A DNA stretch of 64,000 nt from Promethearchaeota archaeon (GTDB lineage: Archaea > Asgardarchaeota > Lokiarchaeia > Sigyniarchaeales > SOKP01): the NCBI GenBank assembly GCA_019058445.1, contig JAHPZA010000010.1, positions 384,001 to 448,000 of the forward strand, read 5' to 3'. The translations under genes and the position numbers were made by a program. This document shows, one piece after another, positions 55,835-59,400 of this stretch; the first letter of the stretch is position 1, and every line of letters starts with the position of its first letter. The notes below the pieces were generated by a model, which saw nothing but the letters and a program-made list of their open reading frames with translations, did no database searches and was not told the DNA's origin.

Positions 55835-57304
55835 TTAATCTAATTGGATTTTTATCTCAGAAATGCGTTTTTTAGTTTGATTTAGATCTTTTTGTAATTT
55901 CTGAGTTTGCTTTTCAAATGTTTTATCGTCTAATTTTCCATCTTCATGCTTCTTTTCTATGAATTTTAGAAGATTTATAACAGAGTTTAATTTACTTTCT
56001 AAGCTCTCTAATTTTGCTTCTAAATCTTCTTTACTTTCTTCTTTTTTTTCAATTTTTGGTGCTACTTTTTTCTCTTCCTTCGACTTTGATTTTTTTTTTG
56101 CCTTTGTATGTTTTTTAGGGTGTTTAGGAGGTTCACTTATTTTAGAGGGGGGGACAGGTACTGATTTAATAAACTCTTTTTCATCAATATCATCATCCCT
56201 TTTCTCTAATTCTGGAGGCTTAGGTGGTAAAGCGGTAAGATTCGAGGGATCTTTACTACTTAAATAATCATATACAGATTCTTCTTCTTCCTGATATGGT
56301 TCATAAATAAAATCAGGATTAGTAGGTGATGCCGTTTCTAAAGCTTGATCTTCTGGTCCACAAAAGATTTCCTCTGCGGATTCTGATATAATTTCTATTA
56401 GTTTATGAATGCTGGTTTTCATAGTATTAATCTGAGTTAAGTAATTTTGTAAAATTTCAATTACTTCAGCTTTGGAAGAAAATGTAATTGATGAGTCTAT
56501 TTTCATTTGAGTCTCAACTTGAGTTGCAGTCTCTACAGTTGATGGTTGCTCTTCGATTGTCTGCACAGGTTTGATGGAAACGGGTAATGTATGTTCTTCT
56601 CCTTGTCTGGTTAATTCCATACGATAATCTGAAATAAGCCAATTAAAGATGTTTAACGTTAAAACATGATGGTCATCATATTGAAACCCACCGCCTGTTT
56701 TATCTCGAAACATTTCATAACTCCCAATTGAACATACTCTTCCTCGGTTTGGTTCTGAAGTACAAATTAATGGACAACTAAATGGTTCAGATGTTTCATT
56801 TGATGTGGCTATAGAAATTGCACTGCCTATCACAGTAAGAGAACATCCTGCTCGATAACAAATGGAAGAAATTCCATTCGTAATGGGATGGGGAGGTATA
56901 AAATTAATTGAAGAAATAATTGGCATATTTTCAATTCCAATATTGTTGATCTCATCTAATACTTGGTCGTTTTCAAAAGCGATTCCAAACTGCTCTGATA
57001 ACTCACTTACGTTGCTATTTCGCCCACGATCGCCGCCCGCATGAGAGAGTAAAAACAAACCACCTCCATCTTCTTTTACCCAATTCACAATTTCCATTAT
57101 TTCAATATGAGAAAATTTAGAAAAGTCGGGACATGCGATTACTAAAATATCAAAGGGTTTTAAAGACTCTTGAGTGACGGGAGTTTCGAGAAAGTTATAA
57201 CACACAAAATCATTATCGATTAAATAATCTCTTATTTCAGTAAAATTTTCATCAAGTTTCGCTCTTTCCTTATGAGAGTTATCAAAGGCAATATAATACG
57301 GCAT
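55835..57304 (-). CDS. Cytosolic GIFT (GldG/IFT52)-domain protein with coiled coil, Pro/Lys-rich linker and C-terminal helical hairpin
   Basis: Residues ~3-225 are collinear with the IFT52 N-terminal domain; no signal peptide or TM. Confidence 0.7.
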   Translation of the reverse strand: MPYYIAFDNSHKERAKLDENFTEIRDYLIDNDFVCYNFLETPVTQESLKPFDILVIACPDFSKFSHIEIMEIVNWVKEDGGGLFLLSHAGGDRGRNSNVSELSEQFGIAFENDQVLDEINNIGIENMPIISSINFIPPHPITNGISSICYRAGCSLTVIGSAISIATSNETSEPFSCPLICTSEPNRGRVCSIGSYEMFRDKTGGGFQYDDHHVLTLNIFNWLISDYRMELTRQGEEHTLPVSIKPVQTIEEQPSTVETATQVETQMKIDSSITFSSKAEVIEILQNYLTQINTMKTSIHKLIEIISESAEEIFCGPEDQALETASPTNPDFIYEPYQEEEESVYDYLSSKDPSNLTALPPKPPELEKRDDDIDEKEFIKSVPVPPSKISEPPKHPKKHTKAKKKSKSKEEKKVAPKIEKKEESKEDLEAKLESLESKLNSVINLLKFIEKKHEDGKLDDKTFEKQTQKLQKDLNQTKKRISEIKIQLD

Positions 57305-58623: not shown

Positions 58624-59400
58624 TTAATAAAATTTCGATTTATCAGAATCAAAGACTCTTTGTAGATAGCCAAATAACAAATCTAGTCCATCTTCTCTTT
58701 TTATTGTACAAGGTATCAACTCTGCAGTTGATCCCATCTGAATAAATACTTCTGATAAATCCATGGACAATTCCCTTATCAATCCACTTTCTCGCTCACT
58801 TGTAGATTCTTCTAATGCTTTGAAGTCTTGCGACCAGTTAATAATCATATCTATCTGGTCATCATCTAGAAGGTCCATCTTAGAAAGTACATTAATTTGA
58901 GAGATTCTTCTAAATCGGAATTGTACGGATGCAGCAAGTAATAAGGTTGATATGAATCCATTTGGCCGAAGTACAAAATTAGAATCAAATAGAAATGAAA
59001 CTGACTTTTGAATATCTCCGAAACCTAAAGAACTTGCGATTAATGGTCCAGTTTCTCTAAAAGCAAACAGTTCTAATTGTCCTGCTGTATCTACTAAAAC
59101 CCAGTCCGGATTAAATTCATCAATTTCATATTTTAAATCATCTAAATAGTTAACCATCAAGTCACTTGCGAGTATCATCCCCCCATTAGGGCCTAATCCA
59201 TATTCTTCCATGATCTCCTCTAAAACAACAAAATCCCGGATATCAATATCTGGAATATAAGGGATTATTCTTACACCAGGATCTAAGTTTACAGTTATGG
59301 CCGAAATTTCGGGATCTCGGTTGATTAGATATTGCTTTAATTCACCTGTAATAGTAGATTTGCCTGAACCTGCTGTACCTATAAAGTAATTAAGTAGAAT
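58624..59400 (-). CDS. gpn: GPN-loop GTPase (non-canonical ATT start at 59400)
   Basis: GTAGSGKST P-loop and NLDPG lie upstream of the first ATG; YGLGPNGG, DTAGQLE, SKMD. Confidence 0.9.
   Translation of the reverse strand: MLLNYFIGTAGSGKSTITGELKQYLINRDPEISAITVNLDPGVRIIPYIPDIDIRDFVVLEEIMEEYGLGPNGGMILASDLMVNYLDDLKYEIDEFNPDWVLVDTAGQLELFAFRETGPLIASSLGFGDIQKSVSFLFDSNFVLRPNGFISTLLLAASVQFRFRRISQINVLSKMDLLDDDQIDMIINWSQDFKALEESTSERESGLIRELSMDLSEVFIQMGSTAELIPCTIKREDGLDLLFGYLQRVFDSDKSKFY

Follow-up and report, generated by a model that had tools for sequence, protein, structure and literature searches.

A cytosolic GIFT protein of Asgard archaea with a C-terminal hairpin that is very probably of the ESCRT-I steadiness-box type

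We analyzed a window of 64,000 nucleotides from a Promethearchaeota archaeon of the Lokiarchaeia (assembly GCA_019058445.1, contig JAHPZA010000010.1, positions 384,001 to 448,000), and we describe here one gene on its minus strand, which encodes a protein that we call P0001 (Table 1). The open reading frame (ORF), 489 codons and a stop, is present exactly as in the original prediction, which had been made from the sequence alone. P0001 begins with a GIFT domain, as does the ciliary protein IFT52, and ends in a two-helix hairpin that, judged by profile comparison, very probably belongs to the steadiness-box (SB) type. The SB hairpin is the element by which Vps23, Vps28 and Vps37 bundle into the headpiece of ESCRT-I.

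More than 548 homologs of P0001 were found, mostly named as Promethearchaeota or Lokiarchaeota proteins from metagenome-assembled genomes. We aligned 32 and 83 full-length orthologs (sets A1 and A3) and 58 tails (set A4). The full-length alignments show five conserved modules with hypervariable linkers between them: the GIFT domain, a helix, a linear motif, a Lys-rich spacer and a C-terminal block of ∼65 residues. Since these features are kept across hundreds of orthologs, they are not a chance pattern. The helix appears in both alignments as the block IS-KSEL--LL----NQI--IK--I--L. The linear motif bears out a Pro-rich linker that had been proposed for this protein: its family-wide form is L-T-x-L-P-P-K-P, and residues L359, P360 and P363 each reach 90% conservation or more in the 83 orthologs, although the linker around them is hypervariable. 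An AlphaFold2 model made from the 83-sequence alignment predicts disorder throughout the Lys-rich residues 309–424 before the hairpin; the hairpin itself has a predicted local distance difference test (pLDDT) score of ∼94 in the full-length model and adopts the same fold when modelled alone (pLDDT 93). The highest 19-residue Kyte-Doolittle value in P0001 is 1.41 and lies within a core β-strand, while the N-terminus is polar; thus the protein has neither a signal peptide nor a transmembrane helix, as the prediction had held. Some homologs that are 70–75% identical to P0001 bear the label 'Hodarchaeota' at NCBI; this probably reflects submitter taxonomy, and we did not use these labels to argue for independence from ESCRT.

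Table 1. Features of the P0001 gene and its upstream neighbors (positions in the window; residue numbers refer to P0001).
Feature	Position	Strand	Basis
Whole gene, protein P0001, 489 aa + stop: GIFT head, linkers, SB-type tail	55835..57304	minus	ORF list and translation
GIFT domain, residues 1-233; class-I glutamine-amidotransferase-like fold, IFT52/OST48/GldG superfamily	56606..57304	minus	Pfam, hhalign, Foldseek; pLDDT >90
Conserved amphipathic helix, residues 278-308, variable disordered linkers on both sides	56381..56473	minus	AlphaFold2 pLDDT ~80
Linear motif L-T-A-L-P-P-K-P, residues 356-363, in disordered linker	56216..56239	minus	Ortholog conservation; pLDDT below 50-58
C-terminal hairpin, very probably SB-type, residues 425-489 (helices 425-454 and 460-488)	55838..56032	minus	pLDDT 93-94, SB hidden Markov models (HMMs), hhalign
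Sugar-1-phosphate nucleotidyltransferase, divergent, LbH tail, 364 aa	57433..58527	minus	Pfam NTP_transferase 89 bits + LbH_EIF2B
GPN-loop GTPase, further upstream, context only	58624..59211	minus	Pfam ATP_bind_1 105 bits

To characterize the hairpin, we scanned all 11,737 frames of the 4.6-Mb assembly with an HMM built from Asgard Vps23 and Vps28 steadiness boxes only, with GIFT proteins excluded. Exactly three frames matched: a Znr_CC_PH_SB protein (E 3.6e-10), the tail of P0001 (27.2 bits, E 1.6e-6) and Vps28 (E 2.1e-5), with the next frame at E 0.29. When the HMM was rebuilt from segments set by Pfam coordinates alone, which removes circularity, it returned the same three matches, with the P0001 tail at 20.7 bits (E 1.9e-4) and an hhalign probability of 95.6%. 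Across the hhalign tests, the tail aligned to Asgard steadiness boxes with probabilities of 95.6–96.9% (E 1e-8 to 6e-10); for the pooled steadiness boxes the probability was 96.6% and the score 49.8, level with the score between the Vps23 steadiness box and the Vps28 N-terminal hairpin (50.7). Reversed-profile controls gave 0.2–5.7%, and natural coiled-coil hairpins from the same phylum gave 0.8% (SerRS arm) and 4.5% (prefoldin beta), while the family's own middle helix stayed below 5%. The match covers both helices and the loop between them, with the common positions LE-LES, EKK[FH]--G-[IL] and Y-K.

An HMM of the tail matches the steadiness boxes of UEV-Vps23_core proteins, the N-terminal hairpin of Vps28, a freestanding SB and Znr_CC_PH_SB, all with identities confirmed by Pfam. 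Its matches fall on the residues that Pfam marks as Vps23_core, and the ORFs of other Asgard genomes in which Pfam finds Vps23_core are the only non-GIFT ORFs that the tail HMM had matched earlier. Run against whole genomes, the tail profile found a Vps23-like SB as its best non-self match in genome G006 and the Vps28 N-terminal hairpin as its top match in G058; in G012 the top match was again a Vps23-like SB, at a weak E of 0.07. One further match of the tail HMM, at C9:768080 of the genome studied here, is a flavodoxin-like Fe-S protein and was rejected as a false positive.

A different explanation of these similarities is a tail made of a generic antiparallel coiled coil that converged on the SB in its length, loop Gly and heptads, in which case P0001 would be a dimeric or oligomeric GIFT protein. 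Several results lean this way, and thus away from an SB assignment. In the Foldseek ranking against the PDB, hairpins of the ESCRT-I headpiece stand at the top (6VME, 2F6M_C, 2F66_A, 2P22), and 6vme, 2f6m_C and 2f66_A superpose on the tail with a root-mean-square deviation (rmsd) of 0.6–1.0 Å over 57–58 columns, but the E-value of ∼1 is not significant. The VIA aligner places 182 chains at Z ≥ 8, with the ESCRT-I hairpins (Z 9.5–9.6) tied with CHMP4B, SMC, CdvA and designed hairpins at Z 9–10. The predicted structure therefore agrees with an SB without setting it apart from other hairpins. When the 58 tails are scanned one by one, they match dozens of coiled-coil Pfam families (KxDL in 47 of 58, prefoldin, Seryl_tRNA_N, CdvA), and Vps23_core is not among the 25 most-matched. 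The Pfam model PF09454 (Vps23_core) finds no match on the tail at E ≤ 10 with hmmscan, nor at E ≤ 1 genome-wide, and among the PDB sequences the tail profile matches generic coiled coils alone (prefoldin 4, designed coils, Rpt1), with ESCRT-I chains absent at E ≤ 10.

Against convergence stand the observations that the SB HMM picks out only three frames from the entire genome, the other two being accepted SB proteins, that every reversed-profile and coiled-coil control stays under 6% compared with 96% for the tail, and that the match runs through both helices and the loop. PF09454 also misses the hairpins of this genome's own Vps28 and Znr_CC_PH_SB. We accept the tail as SB-type on account of the sequence-profile tests, that is, the hhalign comparisons, their controls and the genome-wide SB HMMs, and a generic coiled coil appears improbable. 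An SB-like tail had been claimed in the original prediction, and the comparison of 96% with less than 5% in the coiled-coil controls upholds it, contrary to our initial expectation of a generic coiled coil. The prediction had also named a SHOCT domain as an alternative; SHOCT (PF09851) gave no match on P0001 at E ≤ 10, and none of its five genome-wide matches at E ≤ 1 lies in this gene.

Several other observations concern the tail. A protein-atlas feature search gave no usable match, and a shape search of the same atlas returned the tail's own family, CdvA-like hairpins, recombinase coiled coils and a Thorarchaeota GIFT cluster. KxDL, a family of BORC/BLOC-1 subunits, reaches a best E of 2.8e-5 among the A4 tails, in tails with a conserved K-L-x-x-D-L, which is probably coiled-coil noise. 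The top VIA match of the tail (Z 10.4; Foldseek rank 7) is the cytoplasmic domain of OST1 (ribophorin I) from Promethearchaeum (PDB 8WHN); no sequence similarity to it was detected, and the match is curious in that a GIFT domain is present in OST48, which is also a subunit of OST. The two weak Vps23_core matches of this genome, an acyl-CoA dehydrogenase and a glutamate-dehydrogenase-like protein, are false positives.

It is useful to set P0001 beside the SB-bearing proteins already described. Asgard UEV-Vps23, Vps28, freestanding SB and Znr_CC_PH_SB proteins are on record, and the combination of GIFT with an SB is not (PMC9192718, PMC10936438); SB hairpins also occur on several other Asgard architectures, both in the published survey (PMC10936438) and in our own analysis, and that ESCRT survey does not mention GIFT or IFT52. 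Like Vps23/TSG101 and the Asgard UEV-coiled-coil-Vps23_core proteins (PF09454; PDB 2F6M, 2F66, 2P22, 6VME; PMC9192718), P0001 has a terminal two-helix hairpin of ∼60–65 residues (hhalign 90–96.9%), preceded in order by a binding head, a Pro-containing linker and a helix. It differs from them in that the head is GIFT rather than UEV, in that its tail escapes the Pfam Vps23_core model, and in that ∼115 disordered, Lys-rich residues separate its helix from the hairpin, whereas Vps23 has a contiguous stalk. Znr_CC_PH_SB (asCOG cog.011556), described as an ESCRT component (PMC10936438), is likewise an Asgard-specific protein ending in an SB hairpin, but with a zinc ribbon, a coiled coil and a PH-like domain in place of GIFT; the copy in this genome ends ...FESGVISDVDYFRTYKKLQKDI..., visibly like the ...HEDGKLDDKTFEKQTQKLQKDL... 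of P0001.

Three further proteins came to light in the same searches. The ORF at C6:88355-90475 of this genome (G000; L109:2353-4446, minus strand) encodes 697–707 residues with an N-terminal zinc ribbon, a PH/GLUE-like segment, a Q/Y/P-rich region of low complexity and the strongest SB hairpin of the genome, and is probably its Znr_CC_PH_SB (cog.011556) member. A 478-residue protein at L142:1784-3220 (minus strand; G147:C10) combines a helical N-terminus with a long linker rich in Lys and Pro and an SB-like tail, ...KYKKGELDDLAYKREMDKIR...; the tail profile of P0001 gives it 28.7 bits, no Pfam family matches it, and it may represent another undescribed SB-bearing architecture. On contig C9 of this genome (C9:654709-655017, locus L019), a 793-residue ORF matches the Pfam VPS28 model in the model's C-terminal half alone (positions 82–187), which suggests a large protein with a Vps28_C-like domain; its orthologs, of ∼790–820 residues, recur across the family.

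The head of P0001 is a true GIFT domain of the IFT52/OST48/GldG superfamily. The Pfam model PF23355 (IFT52_GIFT) scores 57.9 bits against a cut-off of 27.2, over residues 5–116 and a second stretch, while PF09822 (ABC_transp_aux), at 24.5–27 bits, stays under its cut-off of 34.7. Among PDB sequences, the top matches of P0001 are the IFT52 chains 5fmr_A (E 1.4e-7), 8bd7_B and 5fms_A. Foldseek likewise places the N-terminal part of IFT52 first for the modelled domain (5fms and 5fmr, E 1e-15 to 1e-16, target TM 0.80–0.91), ahead of OST48, STM3548, ThuA-like and GH42 domains; the superposition on 5fms has a target TM of 0.85–0.91 and an rmsd of 2.0–2.2 Å (∼2 Å for mouse). OST48/Wbp1, whose luminal domain (PDB 6S7O, 6EZN) is the second structural family after IFT52 (Foldseek E ∼1e-8 to 1e-9), differs in being luminal and membrane-anchored, and its sequence signal to P0001 is weak (Pfam OST48_N E 0.17). 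GldG/ABC_transp_aux (PF09822), DUF4350 (PF14258) and forms with the tail of a type IX secretion system (T9SS) belong to the same superfamily, but these prokaryotic proteins are mostly exported, membrane-anchored or multidomain, whereas P0001 is cytosolic and carries one N-terminal GIFT domain and the SB-type tail. Two further cytosolic paralogs are encoded on contig C9: a ThuA-like GIFT-superfamily protein of 242 residues, adjoining a proteasome beta subunit (L004:1222-1950, minus strand), and a GIFT/DUF4350-like protein of 302 residues with a short C-terminal coiled coil (L002:949-1857, minus strand).

Within the clade, the head carries a set of invariant polar residues without counterpart in IFT52 (H11, K12, R14, C58, D60, H88, R95, E111, Q114, H139, R151, Y196, E197 and R200), which argue for a defined ligand- or partner-binding site. 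One could go further and regard the head as a cryptic hydrolase or transferase on the glutamine-amidotransferase-like fold, with a tail that just localizes it. An enzyme of this kind would fit the unusual density of invariant Cys, His, Asp, Arg and Glu where neighboring strands reach their C-terminal ends (C58-P-D60, S87-H88, D92, R95, H139, R151, E197, R200), and also the ∼70% identity of GIFT domains across the family. However, the canonical Cys of the nucleophile elbow is missing after strand 4, where the sequence reads S-H-A-G-G-D, and we know of no catalytic GIFT domain; this explanation is hardly credible.

How close is this head to that of IFT52? IFT52 (OSM-6/BLD1; PF23355; PDB 5FMR, 5FMS, 8BD7), a protein of the IFT-B1 core, is also cytosolic with GIFT at its N-terminus, and the two domains are homologous over their whole length, with a common signature of GG...GG[DE]..[TS]N...G..N[DN].V, P...P, G..GS..F.D and N...W-L. 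The Asgard GIFT HMM matches 128 of 128 eukaryotic IFT52 proteins, at 54–105 bits and over the full domain, and hhalign aligns the clade to IFT52 across residues 6–233 (probability 98.3%, E 1.5e-14). Together with the Pfam and Foldseek matches, these results confirm the proposed IFT52-like N-terminal domain, and the motif pairs that had been quoted in its favor recur in our alignments to the IFT52 PDB chains. The resemblance ends with the domain. P0001 has no intradomain insert of the IFT52 kind, nothing beyond residue 233 aligns to the IFT52 profile, and neither the Pro-rich central region that binds IFT70 and IFT88 (PF23352, IFT52_central; no Pfam match at E ≤ 10) nor the C-terminal IFT46-binding domain (PF21178; no Pfam and no hhalign match) was found on P0001. 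PF23352 is present in every non-fragment IFT52 protein that we fetched.

On the strongest reading of this homology, P0001 would be either the direct precursor of IFT52 or its sister, and thus an Asgard scaffold for proto-intraflagellar transport. Among solved proteins IFT52 is indeed the best match by both sequence and structure, the cytosolic location and N-terminal GIFT domain are as in IFT52, and one orthologous lineage has GIFT fused to a Ras-family GTPase. However, that best match is biased, because the PDB holds no solved prokaryotic GIFT domain near this family, and bacterial GIFT proteins, one of them with a T9SS sorting tail, exceed the IFT52_GIFT cut-off as well. The IFT52 HMM prefers other prokaryotic GIFT proteins (P0173 at 107 bits, P0261 at 100) to this clade (46–76 bits). 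In profile-profile scores against IFT52, the clade reaches 132, compared with 239 for a wider cytosolic archaeal set and 203 for exported prokaryotic GIFTs; this is the second-lowest value among six prokaryotic groups, above only the short paralogs (89.5). Against exported or T9SS GIFT groups, hhalign gives the clade 100% probability and scores of 300–350, and cytosolic GIFT proteins exist beyond Asgard too, for example in Korarchaeota (homolog P0164). A quick tree of 88 rows places IFT52 at a deep trichotomy; a careful tree of 65 rows, which omits 23 long-branch or redundant ones, has a polytomy for a backbone and joins IFT52, as a long-stemmed clade, weakly (42/76) to another small clade. 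The approximately unbiased test is unable to reject a clade of IFT52 and the orthologs (p 0.57). By these measures P0001 has no demonstrably closer tie to IFT52 than the other prokaryotic GIFTs do; the sisterhood raised in the original prediction, like any other special relationship of the clade to IFT52, found no support in these comparisons, and a proto-intraflagellar-transport scaffold is very improbable. In protein P0153, from a lineage nested in the ortholog clade, a Ras-family small GTPase (Pfam Ras, 116 bits) replaces the linker and the SB tail.

Taken together, we tentatively favor, with slightly less than even confidence, a reading of P0001 as a soluble modular adaptor, made of a GIFT head, a tethered helix and linear motif, and an SB hairpin for assembly. 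The hairpin would dock P0001 into a bundle of SB hairpins, either with itself or with Vps28 or Znr_CC_PH_SB, the only other SB proteins of the genome, and P0001, once docked, would display its GIFT head and its linear motif from a long tether. The order of head, linker, helix and SB would then mirror that of Vps23/TSG101, with GIFT substituting for UEV. The domains, their homologies, their conservation and the synteny are what was observed; SB-mediated assembly, and any connection to ESCRT, are inferred. A complex prediction between the tail (A4) and the N-terminal 110 residues of Vps28 (A5), made without controls, gave a score of 0.26 and a mark of 0.32 and speaks neither for nor against binding.

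Directly upstream of the P0001 gene lies the nucleotidyltransferase of Table 1, which retains an intact G-x-G-S-R-L...P-K motif; rmlA_long and Arch_glmU are its best NCBIfam models, its score is under every NCBIfam equivalog cut-off, and its best PDB matches are mannose-1-P guanylyltransferases. Counting loci with upstream DNA, this gene is directly upstream and on the same strand in every locus of the window's own family (f1) and of a family in its own order (f2), with intergenic gaps of 46–228 bp. Its orthologs, at 79, 74, 41 and 40% identity, co-diverge with the GIFT protein. The distance from the GIFT gene is 1.6 kb in family f3 and 4.5 kb in f21, whereas in f4, f5, f7, f8, f18, f19, f20, f26 and f27 the DNA up to 6 kb away contains no nucleotidyltransferase gene.

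The co-inherited nucleotidyltransferase is the best lead to a partner of the GIFT head, and it opens a role for P0001 independent of ESCRT, in nucleotide-sugar or glycan metabolism, where the hairpin would oligomerize the protein and the head would work with the nucleotidyltransferase or regulate it. The constant upstream position in f1 and f2, the nearby copies in f3 and f21 and the co-divergence agree with this role, as do the OST48, ThuA-like and GH42 domains that rank structurally behind IFT52, and the invariant basic and polar residues would fit a small-molecule site. It is weakened by the absence of the gene within 6 kb in the nine families just listed; the intergenic gaps are compatible with co-transcription but do not require it, and such a role gives no account of why the oligomerization module should be specifically of the SB type. 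We regard it as possible but rather unlikely.

The GPN-loop GTPase gene further upstream has the same position in L005 and L006, which are close relatives; L007 and L008 lack it there. Counted from its first ATG, its ATP_bind_1 match begins only at model position 57, so that the coding sequence of the P-loop must lie ahead of the first canonical start. A short GIFT paralog lies downstream of the GIFT gene in some relatives and has no true ortholog in this genome; the 242-residue paralog on C9 was considered for that place and rejected, being ThuA-like instead.

Returning to the adaptor, its distribution shows how far it keeps company with ESCRT. The GIFT protein family occurs in 131 of the 201 Asgard genomes sampled (75 of the 86 high-quality ones), usually in single copy, and the SB-type tail is found in orthologs of f1, f2, f7, f8, f19 and f26. 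In f8, the gene for the GIFT-SB protein lies ∼5 kb from adjacent UEV-Vps23_core and Vps28 genes in three genomes of three (G006:C1, G017:C3, G076:C28; loci L054 and L056). A number of observations, however, count against a role with ESCRT-I. In the genome studied here, Vps28 (C6:1047819-1048457) and Znr_CC_PH_SB are encoded on contig C6 and the GIFT-SB gene on C10, outside any ESCRT cluster, and the co-inherited neighbor in its own order is the nucleotidyltransferase; the link to membrane-remodelling machinery that had been suggested for P0001 thus gains nothing from its own locus. Orthologs in f3, f4, f5, f18, f20, f21 and f27 end in a different C-terminal coiled coil. In f7, the GIFT protein is present in 43 of 43 genomes and Pfam VPS28 in 1 of 43, an uncoupling from Pfam-detectable Vps28 that also favors the glycan role; the f7 genomes contain other proteins of ∼540 residues with SB-like tails. 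In f12, f13, f14 and f22, which have Vps28, no GIFT ortholog was found. Finally, helix 278–308 is not contiguous with the hairpin, unlike the Vps23 stalk.

In a bolder form of the adaptor reading, the GIFT-SB protein would supply the third hairpin to an ESCRT-I-like headpiece in Asgard archaea, with the GIFT head as a ubiquitin-independent module for cargo or partners of an archaeal sorting complex; the GIFT head of IFT52 and the ESCRT-I chassis would then have a common past as interchangeable parts of pre-eukaryotic trafficking adaptors. In eukaryotes, the ESCRT-I headpiece consists of exactly three SB hairpins bundled together. This form is prompted by that number, by the three SB proteins detectable here (Vps28, Znr_CC_PH_SB and GIFT-SB) and by the failure to detect a UEV-SB Vps23; the search of the genome with the UEV model PF05743 gave no match, but its controls were likewise silent, so that this negative is uninformative. 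We consider the third-hairpin proposal unlikely.

What is new in P0001 is the architecture that joins a GIFT head to an SB-type hairpin, both parts being already known. Our literature search turned up no publication that connects Asgard archaea with IFT52 or GIFT, nor one describing GIFT combined with an SB. With its head of the IFT52 type and what is very probably an ESCRT-I assembly hairpin, P0001 combines two eukaryote-flavored modules not known together anywhere, in a group of archaea that has been searched intensively for forerunners of the eukaryotic trafficking machinery. If the hairpin joins bundles that contain Vps28, the protein would add a new adaptor to the catalogue of Asgard ESCRT-I-like complexes, and the role of GIFT domains before cilia could be tested directly on recombinant proteins. 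Otherwise, the SB would be a portable oligomerization module that is also used outside ESCRT, and this would caution against reading every Asgard SB match as ESCRT-I.

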